A DNA stretch of 64,000 nucleotides, taken from assembly GCA_045119835.1 (NCBI GenBank), contig JBGVED010000040.1:388-64387 (forward strand), read 5' to 3'. Under the pieces are notes generated by a model. The model was not told where the DNA came from. It worked only from the letters and a program-made list of their open reading frames with translations, and searched no databases. The DNA comes from Bacilli bacterium. GTDB lineage: Bacteria > Bacillota_I > Bacilli_A > RFN20 > DUOF01. Within the stretch, counting starts at the first letter, position 1. Every line of letters starts with the position of its first letter. A program made the translations under genes and the position numbers. Shown in pieces: positions 29,163-48,320 of this stretch.

Positions 29163-30104
29163 ATGGTGAAAGCAATGAAAAAATACAACACTATAATTTC
29201 CATATTCTTCTTGATATTCTTAATATATTCTTTACTAAATATAAATGAGATAAGAAACTCAACACTAAATATACTTATGACATTTTCAAAAACAATATTC
29301 CCTTCTTTATTACCATTTCTAATAATTAATCAAATAATCATAAGTTTAGGACTTATTGATTTATTGTCATATTTTCTTCAATATATAAGCATACCTTTAT
29401 TTAAAATAAGTGGAAAAGGAGCCAGTATAATTATAATTGGAATTTTAAACGGTTTTCCAAGCAGTGCCATTTTCACTTCTATTATGCTAACAAATAAACA
29501 AATAGAAAAAAAAGAAGCTCAAAGACTAATAAACGCTATCTTCTTTCCATCAATCAGTTTTCTCTTTTCTATATTATTACCTAATATAAATAACAATAAA
29601 CTATTCACACTTCTAATATTATCAATATACATGAGTGGATTTATTATCCTTTATATTTCCTCATTTAAAATTTGTTCTCCCCAAATAATAACCTTTAAAC
29701 AAACATTAAATAATACCAAAAATAAACTCAATAATTTCTCGCTTCCATTAAAATTAAAAGAAATCATAAATTATTCCTTTAATACCCTGTTAAATATCTT
29801 AGGAATTATTGTAATATTTTCAATTCCCTGCAACATTATAAATAAAATTTTAACTAACAACATCTCATATCTATTTAAAGGGTTAATAGAATTCTCAATA
29901 CCATCAATAACATTATCCCTATCATCTTTAAATAAAAAAACGATAGTACTCTTCTTAAGTACTATCCTCTCTTTCTCCTCACTATCTTCTATTATGCAAG
30001 CAACAATTTTTATAAATGAAGCTTCTTTAAACAGTAAACAATTTATTACTAATAGAATCATAATCACTCTATTAAGTGTTTTTTTATTGTATTTAATTAT
30101 TTAA
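29163..30104 (+). CDS. ylbJ: Sporulation integral membrane protein YlbJ-like (nucleoside-recognition/Gate domain)
   Basis: TIFPSLLPFLIINQIII, PLFKISGKGASIIIIGILNGFPSSA. It is oriented opposite to ylbF, as in Bacillus. The start could instead be the ATG at 29175. Confidence 0.65.
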   Translation: MVKAMKKYNTIISIFFLIFLIYSLLNINEIRNSTLNILMTFSKTIFPSLLPFLIINQIIISLGLIDLLSYFLQYISIPLFKISGKGASIIIIGILNGFPSSAIFTSIMLTNKQIEKKEAQRLINAIFFPSISFLFSILLPNINNNKLFTLLILSIYMSGFIILYISSFKICSPQIITFKQTLNNTKNKLNNFSLPLKLKEIINYSFNTLLNILGIIVIFSIPCNIINKILTNNISYLFKGLIEFSIPSITLSLSSLNKKTIVLFLSTILSFSSLSSIMQATIFINEASLNSKQFITNRIIITLLSVFLLYLII

Positions 30105-30435
30105 TGTCTTCAAAAATACACTCTTCTACACATTTTAATTGAGCCTTCATTTTTTTATACGCCAAATTATAAGCTTTAACAAAACTATTTTCATCTAACT
30201 GGTATTTAACTTCACTAAGTTTTTTTTGAACTAAAGAAACATCACTACCATATTTTTCAAATCGTTTTACTTGACTATACTCCTCTTTTAAACTATCAAA
30301 TAAAAGCAAAAGTTTACTGACCTCTTGATTTTCTAACATTTTCTTTTCTTTTTCCTTCATATCCAAATATAATTCGCTTTTTAAAATAGTTTCTTTTAAT
30401 TTAAATGTAGTTGACAAAATATCACTATAATCCAT
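30097..30435 (-). CDS. YlbF/YmcA/YheA-family (UPF0342) regulatory protein-like
   Basis: The product is 112 aa and helical. It fits the family pattern of the I..S..Y..... region, followed by F..LKEEY and a C-terminal helix. Synteny with ylbD, ylbE and ylbJ supports the call. Confidence 0.55.
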   Translation of the reverse strand: MDYSDILSTTFKLKETILKSELYLDMKEKEKKMLENQEVSKLLLLFDSLKEEYSQVKRFEKYGSDVSLVQKKLSEVKYQLDENSFVKAYNLAYKKMKAQLKCVEECIFEDIK

Positions 30436-30465: not shown

Positions 30466-32175
30466 TTATTTATTTTTTTTACCCTTATTATAATAAAGAT
30501 TATATAGATTATCATTTATTTTTTCTATAATACCTTCAACTTCTTCTTCTACATCTTTTTCATCTATTTTAAGAAAAAAAGCAATTTCATCATTACTACT
30601 TTTAACAAAACTATCCAATCCATAATACATAGCTAACACCTTTTCTTCTTTTTTATTTAAAAAAGACATAGCCTTCTTAACTTTAACCTTATCTTTAGTC
30701 ATAAGTTCACTTAAAAAAGCATCCATATTTTTTTTCTTCTTATTTAAGAATTCTAAATTTGTTAAATTATCATCCATATCCTTTTCTATATCTTCAACAA
30801 TTAACCCAATACTTAAAGGATCAATATCTAAATTTCTAGCAATTTCATCTATTTCTTGCTCCTTATATCCCAAAAGGCCATAATACCTAACAATTATTTC
30901 TTTTTCTTCTCTAGATAAAACATCTAAATAACTTTTAAAATTATCTAAATCATATTTTAAAGATTTATCATTAAATTTTCCCTCATCTATTATATCTTTT
31001 ATTCTTTTTACACTAAAATCTAAAATTCTATCTAAAGAATCATCATCAATATTATATTTAGAACAAATTTTTTCCCTACTTAAAACTTTATAACCATTAA
31101 ATCCATAACTTTCTTTTAAAATTTCCTGATGCATTAAACTAAACTTAACAAGCACTTTTTCTACCAAATCTTTTTCATAACCAGAAAAATCTTTAAAAAA
31201 TCTTCTTTTCATACTAATTTCATTTGGATGCTTAAGTAAAAATTTCAACTTTTCACTATCTCTTCTTATGCTAAAACTTACCCATGAGACTGAAACATCT
31301 AAAATCTTTGCTATATCTTTCATTTCCGTGCAATTATAGCCATTAATACCATAATATCTAGATATTATTTCCTTTCTTTTTTCTCCAAAAGTATCCAAAG
31401 TTGAATTTATCTCTTCTAAACTATAATTTCCAAAAAGTTCATAAAAGAGAACATTATTTCTATTAAATTTATTAATTTTATCGACTGTTTTTTTTATGTT
31501 TCTAATACATTCATTAATCATTTTTCTAGCTTCACTATAATTAACATTAAAACTTTTAGTAACCCTATAAAAAAGATCATTAACACTGCTACACTCATAA
31601 TAAATATCAATAATCTTTTTATCTCTAATATTTAAATAATTATCTACAATATGCAAACTTTCAGCAAACTCAGCTAAAGAATCTTGAAAAATATTCATAT
31701 CATTTAAAATATTAACAAGCCTTTCGTTTCCATAAATTAAAGTTGAATTAACTGTATTTATATCAACACCACATTCAATAGCAATATCTTTCATATCCAT
31801 CTCATCATTACCATTTAGCCCATAATAAAGCTCTAAAACTTTCTTACATCTAGCTGTCAAATACCCAAGCGTTCTAAAAACATCTTGAGTATTATATTTG
31901 CTATACATTTTATAAAACATCTCATTATTACTATATATACCATTAGGGTTAACAAGAATATTAGCAATTTTATCTACACAAGATTGTCTTTTATGTCGAA
32001 CACCAGAAGCAGTGATTCCATATTTTTCTACAAGTTCTTCTATTTTTAATCTATTAAATCCTCTTACACCATAATACTGACAAATAAACTCTCTATCATT
32101 TTTTCTTAACCTTTCAACTGCTAAATCAATTTTTTCTCTATCGTACCCGTCAAACAAGTCATAAAATTCACTCAT
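30466..32175 (-). CDS. Protein made of seven tandem sigma-70 region-4-like HTH modules (no sigma region 2)
   Basis: Repeat units start at about aa 4, 87, 168, 244, 326, 413 and 487. The recurrent core is L..L....R...I...YYG[LIV].G....[ST]..EIA......S...V. The YYG motif occurs as QYYGV, LYYGL, IYYEC (degenerate), RYYGI, ESYGF, RYYGL and MYYGL. The SD AAGGAGT is present. Confidence 0.75.
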   Translation of the reverse strand: MSEFYDLFDGYDREKIDLAVERLRKNDREFICQYYGVRGFNRLKIEELVEKYGITASGVRHKRQSCVDKIANILVNPNGIYSNNEMFYKMYSKYNTQDVFRTLGYLTARCKKVLELYYGLNGNDEMDMKDIAIECGVDINTVNSTLIYGNERLVNILNDMNIFQDSLAEFAESLHIVDNYLNIRDKKIIDIYYECSSVNDLFYRVTKSFNVNYSEARKMINECIRNIKKTVDKINKFNRNNVLFYELFGNYSLEEINSTLDTFGEKRKEIISRYYGINGYNCTEMKDIAKILDVSVSWVSFSIRRDSEKLKFLLKHPNEISMKRRFFKDFSGYEKDLVEKVLVKFSLMHQEILKESYGFNGYKVLSREKICSKYNIDDDSLDRILDFSVKRIKDIIDEGKFNDKSLKYDLDNFKSYLDVLSREEKEIIVRYYGLLGYKEQEIDEIARNLDIDPLSIGLIVEDIEKDMDDNLTNLEFLNKKKKNMDAFLSELMTKDKVKVKKAMSFLNKKEEKVLAMYYGLDSFVKSSNDEIAFFLKIDEKDVEEEVEGIIEKINDNLYNLYYNKGKKNK

Positions 32176-32237
32176 ATAACACTACTCCTTAACTACAAAC
32201 AATTATAATACAACTAATACAACTAATAAACACTTTT

Positions 32238-32453
32238 TTACTCCTCCATCATCGTTGAAACAAGGGTAAGTAAATTAGAGGCATCTTCCACCTTATCAAT
32301 AAATCTTTTTCTTCTAACAATTTTATACTCCTGTAAAAAGTCCTTTATTTTATTCCTATCAACACTTAATATTCTATACCAATAAGTCCTCTCTCTTAAA
32401 AAATGCCAATAATCAGGATTTTTATCCAAAATAAAAATTATATCATTTTTCAT
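32238..32453 (-). CDS. ylbE: YlbE-like small protein
   Basis: The product is 71 aa. HFLRERTYWYRILS resembles the YlbE FLRE.P.WYR.LSR core. The gene lies directly after the ylbD-like gene with a 1-nt overlap. Confidence 0.55.
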   Translation of the reverse strand: MKNDIIFILDKNPDYWHFLRERTYWYRILSVDRNKIKDFLQEYKIVRRKRFIDKVEDASNLLTLVSTMMEE

Positions 32454-32803
32454 TAGTCATCATATCCCCTTGGTGCTTTATACGAAGTTCGTCTACCATT
32501 TACTTTAGAATCTTCTTTTTTACCAAACTCTCCTAATACCCCTAAAATTTTTTTCATTCCTTCCAAATTCTCATTAATCTTATCCAAATTTACTCCCTCA
32601 AGCATCTTAAGTAAACTATTGGAGCTATTTCTTGTTTGCGTAGATGTTGTATTTTCTTTTTTTTCTTTGAAAACATCTGCTTCCTTTCCAAATAAATCAT
32701 AAGTTTCATATAAACTTTGCCAAGTAGTCTCCTTCTTATCTACTCTCTCTTTTAAAAAAGGTTTATCCTTTATAAATTCTTTAAATTCATCTAGTTTATC
32801 CAT
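32453..32803 (-). CDS. ylbD: YlbD-like putative spore coat protein
   Basis: FKEFIKDKPFLKERVDKKETTWQSLYETYDLFGKE matches the YlbD N-terminal pattern FKEFVKKHP.L...V..G..TWQ..YE.W.L.GE. Confidence 0.55.
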   Translation of the reverse strand: MDKLDEFKEFIKDKPFLKERVDKKETTWQSLYETYDLFGKEADVFKEKKENTTSTQTRNSSNSLLKMLEGVNLDKINENLEGMKKILGVLGEFGKKEDSKVNGRRTSYKAPRGYDD

Positions 32804-32951
32804 TTATAATCACCCATTAAAGTATATGCTTTAAATTTTATCCTAGTGATATTTTATTTAGTTATATAATTTTCAAAGATTCTTTTTTCTACAGCAATAT
32901 AAAACATCAAATAATGTTTTTGTTTTTATAAAAATTAAAAACACATTTTTA

Positions 32952-34961
32952 TTATCTCTTATTTATTGCTAAATTTTGTTTGATTATTTCTATAAGTTCA
33001 CAAATTTTTTTATCTACAATATCTTCGCTCACGTTAAATTTCTCACTAATTTCTAATCTAGACATAACATCCACACCATTTAAACCATAATATAAACTTA
33101 TTAATTTTAAGTCCCTTTCATTTAAATCCCTCATAGCTTTTTTCACTGCTATTATATCTGTGCAATCAACATCAACCAAAAAACGTTGATTCATATTTTT
33201 TAAAATACCTTTTTTAATCAATATAATATTTTTATTCAATGTTTCAGAAATAATAGACTTATAAGAATGATATTTTTTAGCAATATATTCTACTCCCTTT
33301 GATTCCCCTTTTAGGCCATAATACATAACAATAATATCAAAACTTTTTACGTTTAAGCCCATCATACCTTCTCTTATTTGTTTTGCAGAAAAACCTCTAA
33401 ACAAATTATAGAATTCTTCCTTATTTGACCCTTTGTTAGCATCAGGAGAAATTAAAAATTTCTCAATTTTTTTCATCCTACTATCTATATAATAATAAAC
33501 ATGCGATTCATCCATATAAAATCTACTAGCAATCTCCTTCATCGTCAAGCATTCCATTCCCAACCCATAATACAAAGATAAAATTCTCTTATCATAATAT
33601 TCTAATTTATTAAATGCCTTATCAACTTCCTCTTTAGAATAATTTTCAAATCTTTTATAAAAACCTTTTTTACTAATACTTCTTTTTAAAGAAGGATCCT
33701 TTAAAATATTAGAAATAACTTCCATTTTTCTCTTTATTAATCCACTAACAGATGAATAACCTAAATAATATTTACTAGCCAATTGATGAATATCCAACAA
33801 CTCATCCTCAAATCCATAATAATAACGAATTATCTCCATATCCCTCTTTTTCAAATCAAGCAAGGCACTATCAATTTCTTCTTTTGAATAGCCATCAAAA
33901 CTTTTATAAAATTCTTCTTGCATTTCCCTTTTTTTATCCTCTGGAGATTTAAGAAGTTCTTTTAATTTATCTAAATCCGCTTTCATTATTTGATTAATTC
34001 TAGATCTAGTTAAATCATATTTTTTGCCAATAGCATCCATAGTTAAAACACAACAACCAAGTCCATAATAAGATTTAAATATATCCTGCCTTCTTTTATC
34101 TAAATTTGTTAAAGCTTGATTAACTTGCTCCTCACTACAACCTTCAAACATACTATAAAATTCTTTTTTTCTTTCTTCTTCTTTTTTTTCTTTTTTTAAA
34201 ATCTTGGAAATTTTCAATATTGCATTATCAACTATTTCATGAATCATAGAAATGTCTACGCTATATTTTTCAGCAATCTCACTAGCAGTAAAACTATCAC
34301 CCTTCAAACCATAAAAATAATTTAATATATCTTGTATTTTTGAATTCAACCCCAAAACACATTCATCAATTTCCTCTTTTGAAAAGCCTTTAAACTTAGC
34401 ATAAAAATATTGTGGAGCATAAACAATCTCTTTTTCATTCCTTTTATTATTTAAATGCCTTTCAAAAATTTTCAATCCATTTTTCAAGTAATTATAAACA
34501 GTATGATATTTTATATCATATTTATAGCTAATATCTACAGGTCGTAAACATTCTCTGCCTATACCATAATAAGAAAGTATAACCTCCTTACCTAACCCCT
34601 CCATTTTATCAAAAGCATTATTAATTTCTTCTAAAGAATAATTTTTATACTTGTCAAAAAATTCTTCTTTTCTATCCACTACTACAGAAACTTTTTTCTT
34701 TTCACCTAGTAGTTCATCTATTTTATTCATACAAAAAGACAAATGATAGTGAACATTGTAAGTTTCACGATTAGACTTAAGAGAAATTTCTTTAACAGAT
34801 AATTTTTCTCCGCCAATTCCAAAATACAAACACATTATTTCTCTGTTTTGAGGAGATAATTTTTCAATACAATCATACACTTTTTCCTTCCCATACTTAG
34901 CTATAAGAGAATTATATCTTTCAAAATGTATACTTAAATCATTATTTTCGTTTTCCTTCAT
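32952..34961 (-). CDS. Protein made of eight tandem sigma-70 region-4-like HTH modules (no sigma region 2)
   Basis: Repeat units start at aa 13, 101, 186, 268, 351, 434, 517 and 594, with a period of 77-88 aa. An example is FYSMFEGCSEEQVNQALTNLDKRRQDIFKSYYGLGCCVLTMDAIGKKYDLTRSRINQIMKADLDKLKELL. The SD GAGGTGA is present. Confidence 0.75.
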   Translation of the reverse strand: MKENENNDLSIHFERYNSLIAKYGKEKVYDCIEKLSPQNREIMCLYFGIGGEKLSVKEISLKSNRETYNVHYHLSFCMNKIDELLGEKKKVSVVVDRKEEFFDKYKNYSLEEINNAFDKMEGLGKEVILSYYGIGRECLRPVDISYKYDIKYHTVYNYLKNGLKIFERHLNNKRNEKEIVYAPQYFYAKFKGFSKEEIDECVLGLNSKIQDILNYFYGLKGDSFTASEIAEKYSVDISMIHEIVDNAILKISKILKKEKKEEERKKEFYSMFEGCSEEQVNQALTNLDKRRQDIFKSYYGLGCCVLTMDAIGKKYDLTRSRINQIMKADLDKLKELLKSPEDKKREMQEEFYKSFDGYSKEEIDSALLDLKKRDMEIIRYYYGFEDELLDIHQLASKYYLGYSSVSGLIKRKMEVISNILKDPSLKRSISKKGFYKRFENYSKEEVDKAFNKLEYYDKRILSLYYGLGMECLTMKEIASRFYMDESHVYYYIDSRMKKIEKFLISPDANKGSNKEEFYNLFRGFSAKQIREGMMGLNVKSFDIIVMYYGLKGESKGVEYIAKKYHSYKSIISETLNKNIILIKKGILKNMNQRFLVDVDCTDIIAVKKAMRDLNERDLKLISLYYGLNGVDVMSRLEISEKFNVSEDIVDKKICELIEIIKQNLAINKR

Positions 34962-34990
34962 AACTTCACCTCAAAACCTAACTGCAAATT

Positions 34991-35070: not shown

Positions 35071-35099
35071 TTGATTAGTTTAATAGTATATGATAAAAT
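35071..35099 (+). promoter_or_regulatory. SigA-type promoter for the rpsB-tsf operon (extended -10)
   Basis: TTGATT (35071-76), 17 nt, TAAAAT (35094-99), with TG at 35091-92. This leaves a 5' UTR of about 130 nt. Confidence 0.6.
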
Positions 35100-35234
35100 A
35101 CACGAGGTTGCAAAGCAACTAATACACACATTAGTAGGTAGTTTTCTCTAGTGCTTCTAGGCAAAGGTGCCAAATTAGAAGTGGGAAAATGGTGACTAAT
35201 GGAGGGCAAAACAAAAGAAGGAGGACTTTACTAA

Positions 35235-45395: not shown

Positions 45396-48320
45396 TTAAA
45401 CCATACTACCATCAAATTTTAATTCGATTAATTCTTCTGTATAAATTGAACTAGCATTAGTCACAATATCTTCTCCATCTTCAGTTTTCTCAAGTATATT
45501 AGCAGTAAAATAAATAGGTATATAAGCGTGATAATAAGTAACATCGTCTAACGCAGCTGCTATTCCATCAATATGTTCCTCAATGCTTTCAATACTTAAT
45601 CCACCCTTAATTGATTCCCTTAATCCTACAATATAAGAATCTATTTGCGTTGTTGCATATCCTCCCATTAAATAATTTAATCCATTAGATATAGTTGTTA
45701 ATTCGGTTATTGTTTCAGCAACACAATAAACAGAATATCCTCCTTCTCCATGAGTTAAAGCATATGTAACATTCTCATAAACAAATCGTTCATTAACAAT
45801 ATCAATGCGAGTTACACCATTGCTAAGATAATATTGACCTGAATCTTCATGTATTCTATATCTATCACCGCTCAAATTAACATAATAAAGTCCATTTTCC
45901 TGTTCAATACTAACCTGTGTTCTCCTAGCAATACTTAAAAGTTCACTCTTATAATCACGAATTGCATCATAATTAAACTTATGCGCCTCTTCTAATTTAA
46001 CTAACTGAGTATTTCTTATTGAATTAACTTGATTTATAAAACTCGTAGTTACTCCAATATTTTTAACACCATTGCTAAAACTACTATATCCATTTACATT
46101 AACATCAATAGGATTAGAACAAGATTTTCCATACTCAATTGAAGCACAGTATTCGATTTTCTCTAACGTAGTTTTTCTTTCTGAATTTCCTGCCAACAAA
46201 TCGAAAATAGAAAATCCAGTAACATTATTATTAGCATCTTTGTTCGTACTAGCATAGAATTTCATATGCGCAGCAGACGTTACACCCCATGAATCTAGAA
46301 TAGCATAAATATAAGACCACGAAGAAGCACCATAAATTTCATCAACAAATTTTCCATCCGAGTACAACCTAATAGAAGGAGAACCGGTTAATTGTTTCAA
46401 TTTATTAACATCGCTAATATTTGCCATTTTGAAAACAGGAATACTAGATGCTTCTTTAAATTCATTTGTCTTTTTATCCAAAGTTCCACATTTTGGAATT
46501 TTATTTCCGTTTTCATCAGTAAAATATACAATATCCTCATAACACAATGTTGTAGAAACTTCTTTATCTTCTGGAATATTATAATTATAAATAGGGATTT
46601 TTAAATAATTTTCTGCAATAATGTCATCCATTGCTTCTTTATAAACTTCACAGAAATTAGCACTATTTGTATCATTTATAGCCTTTTTAGTAGAAATAGC
46701 CGCATACAAAGCAATACCACCAGCAACTAAAAGCAACGCCGCTCCTACAATCCAACCAACACCTGGAACACTAAGCGAAGCAGCACCAACAGCTGCAAGC
46801 ATAGAACTAACAACAGCTGTTTGAGTAATAAGAGCAACAGCAGTATAAGCTAATACGCCAACTCCAACAGCTACAGCAATTCCACCTACCCCAATTCCAA
46901 CATTAGCAAGAACTTCTGCTAAATAACTGGCCAATGTTCTATTAGTACAAGCATCCATTTGAGTCATCATCTCTAAGAAATTAGTATTAAATAAGAAATC
47001 TTCTCCTGCCTGACTTACAATATTTCCTCTATCAATAATAAATCCATCAGCAGTTGTAAAAGCTATATAATCCCCTTTATTACCTCGATCAATAGTACCA
47101 TCTAAAATTTTAGAATACTCATTTACATCAGTAATTTGAGTAACAGAATTCGTTACCTTTGTACTAGAATTAAAATCCAAAATTGTAGTATAGTAAATTC
47201 TTTTTATTCTACCTAACAAAGAAAAATCATACTTAAATTTATAAACAGTTTGAGCAACATAATTATTTATAGCAGAAGCACTACAAAAGTCTTCAGCTGC
47301 ATTCGCTCCACTACAAAGATAAGTGTTAACAACATTTTTTACATAATTTTCTACGGTTCCTCCTTTATCAGAACCAATTAATTCATTAAACCACCCAACG
47401 TTATCAAAACTATATCCTAAAACTTGTTCATGAGTAAAATATCCAAAAAGAGCCCCTTCACCATATAATAAAGTAACACCTTCAGAAGTTCCTTTACCAA
47501 CATTAGCCACTACATTTTGTCCATCCGGCTTATTATCATAGTTTTTATCTCCACATTTAGTTAAAGCAGAACTATCAATTCCAGTATAATCAACAATATT
47601 ATAATTAGAATCAACGCGTAAAAAATCACATTCAGAAACATATCGTTTAGCATTTACAATATTCTTCAAATTATATTGTTCTTCATTTCTAACAACTTTT
47701 GCTCGTTTTGAAGGTTCAAGTTTACTATTTTCATCAATAAATGTTGCAAGACCTGCTTTCTGCATTTCTTCATATGTATGATAATTATCAGCATCCGAAG
47801 GACCTAAAAAATCTAAAGCGTTTTCTATAAATCCTTTATCAGCTTCCTCATTTGCCATATCCTCCCAAGCTAAAAAATTATCTACTAAAACATAATATAT
47901 TAAAATTTTATATTGTGGTTTATCAAACAAAAACTTACCATCAACAACTTCCTCTGCATAAGGAATTACACCATTATACGTAGCATTGAACATTAAATTT
48001 GATTTGTCTGGAAAGCACTTATCTTCATTTCCATCGCCATCCGTATCACTACACTCACCTTTTGGCAAAACAACCAAAATAAAATCTCTCATACTAAGCA
48101 AATAGCTATAGTACATATCCTTATCCATTTCAATAAATTGTGCTTGAGCATACGTAGAATACGCATAAATATTTTTTCCTTTTCCTATAATAGAATTTTG
48201 CCTACTTTCTTTTAAGTTATTCTCATTGTCTCCACAAGCACTAAGTAAAGGAATAGTAACACAAACAACAATCAACAAACTAACAACTTTTCTAACTTTT
48301 CTAAAAAATTTATACAACAT
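45396..48320 (-). CDS. Large lipoprotein with central Gly/Ala-rich membrane-spanning bundle, function unknown
   Basis: The signal peptide carries the lipobox LLSAC (Cys29). The hydrophobic region at aa 463-543, VGIGVGGIAVAVGVGV...VPGVGWIVGAALLLVAGGIALYAAI, separates two Cys-rich domains of about 430 aa each. The SD is GGAGG. Confidence 0.7.
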   Translation of the reverse strand: MLYKFFRKVRKVVSLLIVVCVTIPLLSACGDNENNLKESRQNSIIGKGKNIYAYSTYAQAQFIEMDKDMYYSYLLSMRDFILVVLPKGECSDTDGDGNEDKCFPDKSNLMFNATYNGVIPYAEEVVDGKFLFDKPQYKILIYYVLVDNFLAWEDMANEEADKGFIENALDFLGPSDADNYHTYEEMQKAGLATFIDENSKLEPSKRAKVVRNEEQYNLKNIVNAKRYVSECDFLRVDSNYNIVDYTGIDSSALTKCGDKNYDNKPDGQNVVANVGKGTSEGVTLLYGEGALFGYFTHEQVLGYSFDNVGWFNELIGSDKGGTVENYVKNVVNTYLCSGANAAEDFCSASAINNYVAQTVYKFKYDFSLLGRIKRIYYTTILDFNSSTKVTNSVTQITDVNEYSKILDGTIDRGNKGDYIAFTTADGFIIDRGNIVSQAGEDFLFNTNFLEMMTQMDACTNRTLASYLAEVLANVGIGVGGIAVAVGVGVLAYTAVALITQTAVVSSMLAAVGAASLSVPGVGWIVGAALLLVAGGIALYAAISTKKAINDTNSANFCEVYKEAMDDIIAENYLKIPIYNYNIPEDKEVSTTLCYEDIVYFTDENGNKIPKCGTLDKKTNEFKEASSIPVFKMANISDVNKLKQLTGSPSIRLYSDGKFVDEIYGASSWSYIYAILDSWGVTSAAHMKFYASTNKDANNNVTGFSIFDLLAGNSERKTTLEKIEYCASIEYGKSCSNPIDVNVNGYSSFSNGVKNIGVTTSFINQVNSIRNTQLVKLEEAHKFNYDAIRDYKSELLSIARRTQVSIEQENGLYYVNLSGDRYRIHEDSGQYYLSNGVTRIDIVNERFVYENVTYALTHGEGGYSVYCVAETITELTTISNGLNYLMGGYATTQIDSYIVGLRESIKGGLSIESIEEHIDGIAAALDDVTYYHAYIPIYFTANILEKTEDGEDIVTNASSIYTEELIELKFDGSMV

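Follow-up and report, generated by a model that had tools for sequence, protein, structure and literature searches.

Proteins built from tandem sigma-70 region 4 domains at the rpsB–ylbF locus of a Bacilli bacterium

Region 4 (σ4) of the σ70-family sigma factors is among the best-studied DNA- and protein-interaction domains of bacteria and, to our knowledge, occurs once per sigma factor. It is also a known target of phage proteins, examples being T4 AsiA and ORF67 of Staphylococcus phage G1, and two-subunit sigma factors such as SigO-RsoA offer a precedent for splitting a sigma factor between polypeptides. A 64,000-nucleotide stretch of DNA from a Bacilli bacterium (assembly GCA_045119835.1, contig JBGVED010000040.1, positions 388 to 64,387; hereafter the window) carries two genes, here called array A and array B, whose products consist of eight and seven consecutive σ4-like units, respectively, and lack the region 2 (σ2) module that defines a sigma factor. 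Array A had been singled out, in an earlier note made from the letters alone, as a concatenation of eight such domains; the analysis below concerns the identity of these units, the family to which both arrays belong and the roles that they might play.

Eight region 4 units in array A

The gene and its units, with residue numbers referring to the encoded protein, are arranged as follows.

32952..34961, minus strand: array A gene, 669 residues; a 12-residue N-terminal tail followed by eight tandem σ4-like units, without σ2
34662..34925, minus strand: unit 1 (residues 13–100), with a variant N-terminus, Y..L[IV].KYG.EKV; Sigma70_r4 match of 4.9e-4 when scanned alone
34407..34661, minus strand: unit 2 (residues 101–185), the best conserved unit among orthologues (0.70)
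34161..34406, minus strand: unit 3 (residues 186–267), recognition helix DISMIHEIVDNA, acidic and fast-evolving (0.22 identity among orthologues)
33912..34160, minus strand: unit 4 (residues 268–350), the sole unit with a SigA-type recognition helix
33663..33911, minus strand: unit 5 (residues 351–433), 66 bits in the leave-one-out test
33414..33662, minus strand: unit 6 (residues 434–516), recognition helix DESHVYYYIDSR, variable among orthologues (0.25)
33183..33413, minus strand: unit 7 (residues 517–593), the most basic unit, with an isoelectric point (pI) of 9.95
32955..33182, minus strand: unit 8 (residues 594–669), the terminal unit, with the motif YYGLNG.D[IV]M at residue 624

The unit starts proposed in the earlier note (residues 13, 101, 186, 268, 351, 434, 517 and 594) are correct and delimit pieces of 76–88 residues, and a hidden Markov model (HMM) of the family unit likewise recognises eight domains. 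When each unit was scored against an HMM of the other seven it reached 37–81 bits, as compared to no more than 11.3 bits for 200 shuffles per unit, and a [YF][YF]G[LIF] motif recurs in every unit, 30–33 residues past its first Phe; judged by their sequences, the eight units are thus mutually homologous. Tandem repeats with a period of ~250 bp were not found at the DNA level, so that the duplications are old rather than an assembly artefact. Three orthologues of array A (670–671 residues, 51–68% identical) contain eight units each.

Several lines of evidence identify the repeated unit as σ4. The whole protein matches Pfam Sigma70_r4 (PF04545) with E=1.4e-25 and 88.9 bits over five stretches (cut-off 24.1), and NCBIfam sigma70-ECF with 5.5e-32; the TIGR02937 model scores 110.7 bits with array A and 77.7 bits with array B (cut-off 42.9), and the remaining notable matches of array A in Pfam and NCBIfam are to the C-terminal ends of the RpoD, RpoS, RpoH, FliA and SigK models. 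Every unit follows the σ4 pattern L..L...E..[IV]...[YF]G[LI]....[ST]..EI[AG]. Scanned one by one against Pfam, the repeats fall into three groups: unit 4 passes the cut-off with 32.0 bits, units 1, 3, 6 and 8 remain below threshold at 15–20 bits, and units 2, 5 and 7 go undetected, so that the family assignment of the earlier note was directly borne out by Pfam for unit 4 only. This gap is closed by three observations taken together, namely the mutual homology of the units, the behaviour of a unit profile and the fold of unit 2. The profile, built from 32 sequences (eight unit types from each of four orthologues), retrieved from the PDB only region 4 chains of sigma factors, the best being SigA of Clostridioides difficile (7l7b_F, 1.5e-6, unit positions 13–70). 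Unit 2, which has no Pfam match alone, was predicted by AlphaFold2 as a five-helix domain (predicted local distance difference test score, pLDDT, of 92.4; predicted template-modelling score, pTM, of 0.79), and its Foldseek matches are almost all σ4 domains (1.4–2.0 Å over ~60 residues, probability 1.00). Moreover, the alignment of unit 4 with regions 4.1–4.2, proposed in the earlier note, is confirmed against SigA, including the retained T-R-x-R-I-x-Q. Every array unit is therefore a σ70-family region 4 domain, with helices 4.1–4.2 and their helix-turn-helix (HTH); both profile and fold matches lead to σ4.

In an AlphaFold2 model of the entire array (mean pLDDT 80.7, pTM 0.33), eight helical bundles are joined by low-confidence linkers, so that array A is predicted to be a series of autonomous σ4 bundles, strung like beads on linkers that are short and flexible. 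The pTM of 0.33 leaves the relative placement of the units undefined. Because domain placement is arbitrary in this model, and because a Foldseek search with the whole protein gave weak E-values (>=0.015) even though all of its top matches were sigma chains, the single-unit model was used for the fold comparison.

The other half of a sigma factor is missing. No Sigma70_r2 match was obtained in array A or B with Pfam at E<=1, as the earlier note had read from the sequence for array A, and a custom region 2 HMM made from family members found no σ2 in the six-frame translation of the 64-kb window (best E=0.15). With σ4 present and the defining test for σ2 failed, arrays A and B are not sigma factors, and array A cannot act as a conventional one.

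Recognition helices, charge and the additional helix H0

Unit positions were mapped to the residue numbers of Escherichia coli σ70, and the correspondence was checked through the alignment of unit 4 to SigA. The scaffold is conserved, with Tyr or Phe at the position of F563, Leu or Ile at that of I565 and Ile or Leu at that of L598, among other positions; these three are also core residues. The equivalents of the −35-contacting R584, E585, R586, R588 and Q589 (unit positions 52–57) are not conserved, and positions 52, 54 and 57 form the entropy peak of the whole unit (3.6–3.9 bits); in 59% of units, Tyr stands at the position of R562, which contacts the DNA backbone. Canonical units, that is those which come first after σ2 in the relatives described below (n=52), have SQ..VSR or TRERIRQ helices, a Lys plus Arg fraction of 0.48 at the key position and a mean HTH net charge of +3.3; the extra or array units (n=770) are 13–17% acidic and up to 29% aromatic at the contact positions, with a mean HTH charge of about +2.0.

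Within array A, T-R-x-R-I-x-Q occurs only in unit 4, whose recognition helix reads LTRSRINQIM where SigA has VTRERIRQIE (alignment to region 4 of 7l7b_F). Acidic recognition helices occur in units 3, 6 and 8, and helices rich in Tyr and His in units 1 (ETYNVHYHLSFC), 2 (KYHTVYNYLKNG, Tyr-rich) and 6. Among orthologues, helix identity is 0.62–0.72 for units 1, 2 and 4, unit 1 being conserved at 0.72, and 0.22–0.29 for units 3, 6 and 7, which change fastest. Since the σ4 scaffold is conserved while the −35 face is its most variable part and frequently carries acidic residues or many Tyr, the reading of −35 promoter DNA has probably been lost in most units. The eight-valent DNA organiser entertained in the earlier note is weakened accordingly, considering that −35 residues persist only in unit 4, that the helix is variable and in three of the eight units acidic, and that array B has a pI of 5.6; an eight-valent DNA reader is unlikely.

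These data also bear on a broader proposal, in which the arrays would be multivalent DNA-binding proteins whose units, each with its own diverged HTH specificity, recognise sites that are composite or dispersed, or cover AT-rich DNA, so that the array would either organise the nucleoid or work as a modular transcription factor. That σ4 is a DNA-binding fold, that unit 4 keeps T-R-x-R-I-x-Q, that orthologues preserve the recognition helices of units 1, 2 and 4 and that array A has a net charge of +10, with a mean HTH charge of +2, all agree with such a role, and a diversification of specificities would itself concentrate hypervariability on the recognition helix. The proposal is nevertheless somewhat unlikely in view of the acidic helices of units 3, 6 and 8, the lack of Arg or Lys at the canonical contacts across the family, with Tyr for R562 in 59% of units, the net charge of −7 (pI 5.6) of array B, and the rapid drift of the helices of units 3, 6 and 7 (0.22–0.29) even among close orthologues. 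Furthermore, fixed target sites would hardly tolerate the shift from 8 to 18–21 units that is seen between genomes whose RpsB proteins are 96–98% identical.

Another feature setting the array units apart is an additional N-terminal helix, H0 (FYxxFxGYS), which comprises the first ~12 residues of the unit, lies outside the σ4 homology and has a pLDDT of 93 in the single-unit model. Its motif is absent from all 52 canonical σ4 units, is found in 15–31% of extra units and occurs in six of the eight units of array A; the longer N-terminal signature attributed to every unit in the earlier note (F-[FY]-x-x-[FY]-x-[GN]-[YF]-S-x-E-E-[IV]) is recognisable in units 2–7, with single substitutions, but not in unit 1 (FERYNSLIAKYGKEKV) or unit 8 (FLVDVDCTDIIAV). 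H0 resembles the pattern ΦΦxxΦ(x)G of the RNA polymerase (RNAP) β-flap tip, EEKLLRAIFGEK, the E. coli flap-tip sequence having been confirmed.

A family of arrays and sigma factors in a conserved gene string

A word-indexed search of 5.8 billion proteins returned only seven relatives, the three orthologues of array A among them. With a profile of the orthologues, HMMER detected many more among 1.84 billion representatives (1421 at E<=1e-3, 137 at E<=1e-10 and 47 at E<=1e-30), the longest representative having 1722 residues. Family representatives are clustered at 50% identity, and the counts of units and σ2 modules that follow cover the 153 best. By the unit HMM, these contain a median of 6 and a maximum of 18 units; at least eight are found in 53 and at least three in 141 of them. 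A further relative of 1946 residues, L002_big, has 21 units. The records of 20 family clusters bear no functional name apart from 'sigma subunit' on an 87-residue fragment, and all members came from metagenomes or metagenome-assembled genomes. The ten loci that were fetched all have a guanine-plus-cytosine (GC) content of 25–28.5%; one family contig (L010) is of human (Hadza) gut origin according to its record name, and the study codes that label the other samples we take to denote ruminant, pig and human gut metagenomes. The GTDB species representatives (185,579 genomes) yielded no locus with the patterns of the orthologue alignment or with YYGLNG[KVE]D[IV], although diverged members may still be present there. 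A search of the accessible literature on tandem or multiple σ4 or HTH arrays found nothing relevant, and neither there nor among family names was any described family with arrays of σ4 encountered, in line with the earlier note. Arrays A and B are thus σ2-less members of an undescribed, lineage-specific and fast-evolving poly-σ4 family.

Among its more divergent forms, the 1049-residue protein P0007 has a shortened repeat, LYEYFDDYTKEEIDKVLPTLT.KQKEIL..YF.KD..RNN, in which H0 and helices H1 and H2 are kept and the rest is shorter and diverged; the HTH half of this repeat may have been replaced. P0030 and P0090 combine σ2 and σ4 units with a C-terminal tetratricopeptide repeat (TPR) region.

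Many relatives are linked to complete sigma modules. σ2 is present in 57 of the 153 representatives (37%), in three layouts. In the first, an N-terminal σ2 is followed by 3–17 units, the latter number being reached by P0031/P0195; in the second, a SigA-like core of regions 1.2, 2, 3 and 4 precedes ~7–13 further units (P0024, P0025, P0036, P0067 and P0071), with about 11–13 in P0024 depending on the unit HMM; in the third, the sigma module is embedded inside the array (L002_big, P0008 and P0009). L002_big (L002:3395-9235, plus strand) carries a complete SigK-like module at residues ~630–850 and is encoded between an array A orthologue and ylbD; the RpsB of its genome shares 96% identity with that of the window. 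The σ2-plus-σ4 segments of L002_big and P0008, both embedded, and of P0011, which is N-terminal, match the SigK or SigE model over nearly its full length (for example, positions 33–231 of 235 of PRK05803, E=1.8e-32); because coverage is nearly full and scores are below the equivalog cut-offs, the modules tested are diverged SigE/K-like paralogues. As the family extends from σ2 with many σ4 units to pure arrays, arrays A and B represent the σ2-less end of a continuum. We infer that tandem amplification of σ4 within a sigma factor gave rise to the family, whose sigma modules are of SigK/E-like or SigA-like type.

Loci of such relatives were also seen elsewhere in genomes. SigA-like factors with about 7–13 extra C-terminal σ4 units (L005:3417-7814, L008:7001-11248 and L009:7001-12082) are not beside dnaG, and one of the three adjoins cotJB, cotJC and yqfQ. 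At L007 an array protein is encoded just upstream of rpmF-mraZ-rsmH, and on the 1.03-Mb Hadza contig (L010:6700-12488) a 413-residue array and a 1495-residue protein with σ2 and 17 units are found in the dcw cluster, between murD and spoVE/ftsW.

The same continuum is what a split sigma factor might leave behind, with arrays A and B donating σ4 in trans to a σ2-only partner and thereby offering it a choice of −35 specificities; in L002, a σ2-bearing array does adjoin the σ2-less orthologue of array A. However, there is no σ2 ORF (open reading frame) in the 64-kb window and −35-reading residues are missing from most units, which makes this scenario very improbable.

Array A belongs to a string of co-directional genes whose other elements, together with its putative expression signals, are listed below.

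35085..35113, minus strand: σA-type promoter-like site, TTGCAA-17 nt-TATACT, a consensus match only, in the 273 bp between array A and the divergent rpsB
34967..34972, minus strand: Shine-Dalgarno-like GAGGTG, 5 nt before the array A ATG (34961), read from the sequence
32453..32803, minus strand: ylbD homologue, 116 residues, Pfam YlbD_coat 3.3e-12
32238..32453, minus strand: ylbE homologue, 71 residues, 3.8e-7; 1-nt overlap between its start and the stop of ylbD
30466..32175, minus strand: array B gene, 569 residues, seven tandem σ4-like units without σ2; Sigma70_r4 2.1e-15, 56.4 bits
array B units, minus strand: approximately residues 4–78, 87–160, 179–235, 244–319, 326–400, 401–473 and 492–560
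30097..30435, minus strand: ylbF homologue, 112 residues, Com_YlbF 2.3e-11; last gene of the co-directional string
29942..29966, both strands: terminator-like hairpin ~130 bp past ylbF, the sole one in the region

From array A, the order is a 148-bp gap, ylbD, ylbE, a 62-bp gap, array B, a 30-bp gap and ylbF, so that array B, a paralogue of array A, lies 777 bp downstream of it in the same apparent operon; the string diverges from rpsB-tsf-pyrH-frr-cdsA-rseP-polC. σA-like consensus sites are no more numerous in the rpsB/array A intergenic region than in its shuffles, and inspection by eye of the region upstream of array A gave no convincing match to a sporulation-type promoter.

Short tandem repeats lie upstream of array B (32206-32228, TAATACAAC x2.6) and of ylbD (32831-32867, a 16-mer x2.4). 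Elsewhere in the window, two ORFs have no Pfam match at E<=1e-3, one of 974 residues (45396-48320, minus strand) and the other, hydrophobic and convergent with ylbF, of 313 residues (29163-30104, plus strand). Between 37725 and 44739 on the plus strand the order is frr-cdsA-rseP-polC, and uppS, dxr and proS, which in Firmicutes often lie between these genes, are absent there. The window has a GC content of 23–33%; its GC skew is negative over the minus-strand blocks (1–35 kb and 45–64 kb) and positive over the plus-strand block (35–44.7 kb), and since the sign tracks the coding strand, no replication origin need be invoked for the switch near 35 kb.

The gene order is kept in relatives. The succession array-ylbD-ylbE-(array)-ylbF recurs in five loci, with the complete rpsB-to-ylbF arrangement in L002 and L006 and the array-ylbD-ylbE part in L001, L003 and L004; rpsB adjoins the string wherever the contig extends that far. 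Array A itself displays the three marks of the arrays at this locus, namely at least three tandem units, a terminal YYGLNG.D[IV]M and a place between rpsB and ylbD-ylbE-ylbF.

Such constancy beside ylbD, a gene annotated as a 'putative coat protein', has suggested a further explanation, according to which the σ4 fold was recruited as a stable Lys- and Tyr-rich block for the spore coat or a scaffold, without a role in transcription. ylbD, ylbE and ylbF adjoin arrays in every relative examined, cotJB, cotJC, yqfQ and gerA are found at relatives' loci, and Tyr reaches 7.6% and Lys 13.2%, as compared to 4.6% and 8.9% in the other proteins of the window (Trp makes up 0% of array A and only 0.4% of the window's proteins). 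The quickly shifting repeat number and fast sequence divergence would also suit this explanation, both being common in coat proteins. On the other hand, 37% of the family is fused to a complete σ2 module, a tie to RNAP, Pfam and NCBIfam scans detected neither a signal peptide or cross-linking motif nor any homology to coat proteins, and the function of YlbD is itself unproven. A structural or sporulation role is thus improbable.

Within this stable setting the arrays diverge. Identity to the window copies is 96–98% for RpsB, 92% for Tsf, 72–87% for YlbD and 51–68% for array A. The arrays at the rpsB–ylbF position have 1722, 229 and 465 residues in L006, and 670, 1946 and 669 residues in L002, with the number of units passing from 8 to 18–21 between genomes with RpsB identities of 96–98%. 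Outside the close orthologues, unit-by-unit BLAST comparisons show no collinearity of internal units. Both unit 8 of array A and unit 7 of array B find their best match in the last unit of nearly every array compared, and this last unit appears to be the only one that is orthologous across arrays.

An arms race could produce this picture if the arrays were decoys that titrate phage or foreign proteins hijacking host σ4 and so spare host transcription. The disparity between array A (51–68%) and YlbD (72–87%) or RpsB (96–98%), the volatile copy number of the units and the presence of hypervariable surface residues on a conserved scaffold would all be expected of it, and structures of σA region 4 with a phage protein (4g6d and 4g8x) are among the PDB matches of the unit profile. 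Yet the locus is a conserved core-genome string beside rpsB and ylbDEF rather than a defence island, it has no effector-like neighbour gene, and PADLOC reports only a σ4-level similarity to MzaA (21.6 bits); a decoy should, in addition, mimic the σ4 surface of the host σA, from which seven of the eight units have diverged. Taken together, these points make the decoy decidedly improbable.

Possible function and comparison with known systems

Considering the residue patterns of the units together with the sigma fusions of relatives, we tentatively favour the possibility, still short of probable, that the arrays are multivalent σ4-type adaptors or competitors that act through protein interactions in transcription initiation. 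Most units would then serve as σ4-type protein-interaction modules rather than promoter readers, and the array would engage the usual partners of σ4, for instance the RNAP β-flap tip, anti-σ factors or regulators that bind σ4. Anchoring to a −35-like site could come from unit 4 and possibly also from units 1 and 2, and in the σ2-bearing relatives the arrays would work on the holoenzyme in cis. Speculatively, H0 might cover the hydrophobic cleft of σ4, which is normally packed against the β-flap tip, leaving each unit soluble on its own.

Several observations weigh against this interpretation of the arrays as adaptors or competitors. As the mean HTH net charge of the extra units is still +2 and array A has a pI of 8.6, non-specific or unit-specific binding to DNA may occur, and the conserved recognition helices of units 1, 2 and 4 (0.62–0.72) would also fit sequence-specific reading. 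The linkers, at 10–15 residues, are too short for adjacent units to bind several RNAP molecules simultaneously, the conserved place beside ylbD, ylbE and ylbF could reflect a function in sporulation or as a structural protein that has nothing to do with transcription, and an H0 profile run against the PDB did not retrieve RpoB, so that the likeness between H0 and the β-flap tip is undetectable by profile.

A bolder version, which we consider unlikely, would amount to a new use of σ4: a fast-evolving library of up to 17–21 σ4 domains mounted on one core-binding module, with σ2-less arrays operating in trans, that would either switch or multiply promoter and partner specificity or serve as a self-capped decoy for anti-σ and phage proteins, H0 mimicking the β-flap tip.

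Whichever role applies, the novelty lies in a known domain placed in a new architecture, with σ4 polymerised eight- and seven-fold without σ2, and up to 21-fold in close relatives, often around or after a complete sigma module, an arrangement that would surprise a specialist in sigma factors. If the arrays act on RNAP they would add a layer to the control of transcription initiation, based on multivalent σ4 competition, libraries or decoys; if they bind DNA, they would constitute a natural modular HTH array. Equally striking are their very fast evolution inside an otherwise conserved core-genome gene string and the restriction of the family, as seen so far, to contigs of 25–28% GC that apparently come from animal and human guts. 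The poly-σ4 family is well defined and experimentally tractable, its genes being accessible to synthesis and its units confidently predicted small domains.

Three other affiliations were considered and rejected. MzaA, the sigma-like protein of the MZA anti-phage system, matches at 61.8 bits against an NCBIfam cut-off of 800, over a single σ4 unit (model positions 620–702), and at 21.6 bits in PADLOC, and no Mza genes lie nearby; LuxR/GerE regulators match at 14.3 bits (array A) and 17.3 bits (array B), below the GerE cut-off of 23.5; and membership in a defence-system or phage family was discarded because PADLOC and PHROGs give only generic σ4 similarity.

Among described proteins, σ70 sigma factors (PF04545; C. 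difficile SigA 7l7b_F; SigK/SigE) have in common with the array units the σ4 pattern and fold. Unlike them, arrays A and B contain eight and seven copies of σ4 instead of one and have no σ2, σ3 or region 1.2, which rules out binding to core RNAP or the −10 element in the manner of a sigma factor; with respect to canonical σ4, their copies possess the extra H0 and have in most cases lost the −35-contact residues. The poly-σ4 sigma factors of metagenomes share with arrays A and B the same unit, including the YYG motif and, in some units, H0, but contain σ2 and could therefore act as genuine sigma factors; the poly-σ4 arrays of other rpsB–ylbF loci share both the terminal unit and the neighbourhood. 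YlxM/UPF0122, PRK06930 and SigO-RsoA resemble the arrays in having a σ4-type HTH without a full sigma factor, but are single-domain proteins. PRK06930 ('positive control sigma-like factor') gives weak matches to the arrays, at 17.6–27.5 bits where the cut-off is 136, and the Foldseek matches include 1s7o (SP_1288, a putative DNA-binding protein).

Finally, an analogy can be drawn with Myb R1R2R3, TALE and ankyrin or TPR repeats, in which a conserved scaffold likewise carries a hypervariable surface and repeat number varies. Unlike these proteins, to which they are not homologous, the arrays are built not as a continuous solenoid but from whole 80-residue domains carried on flexible linkers.

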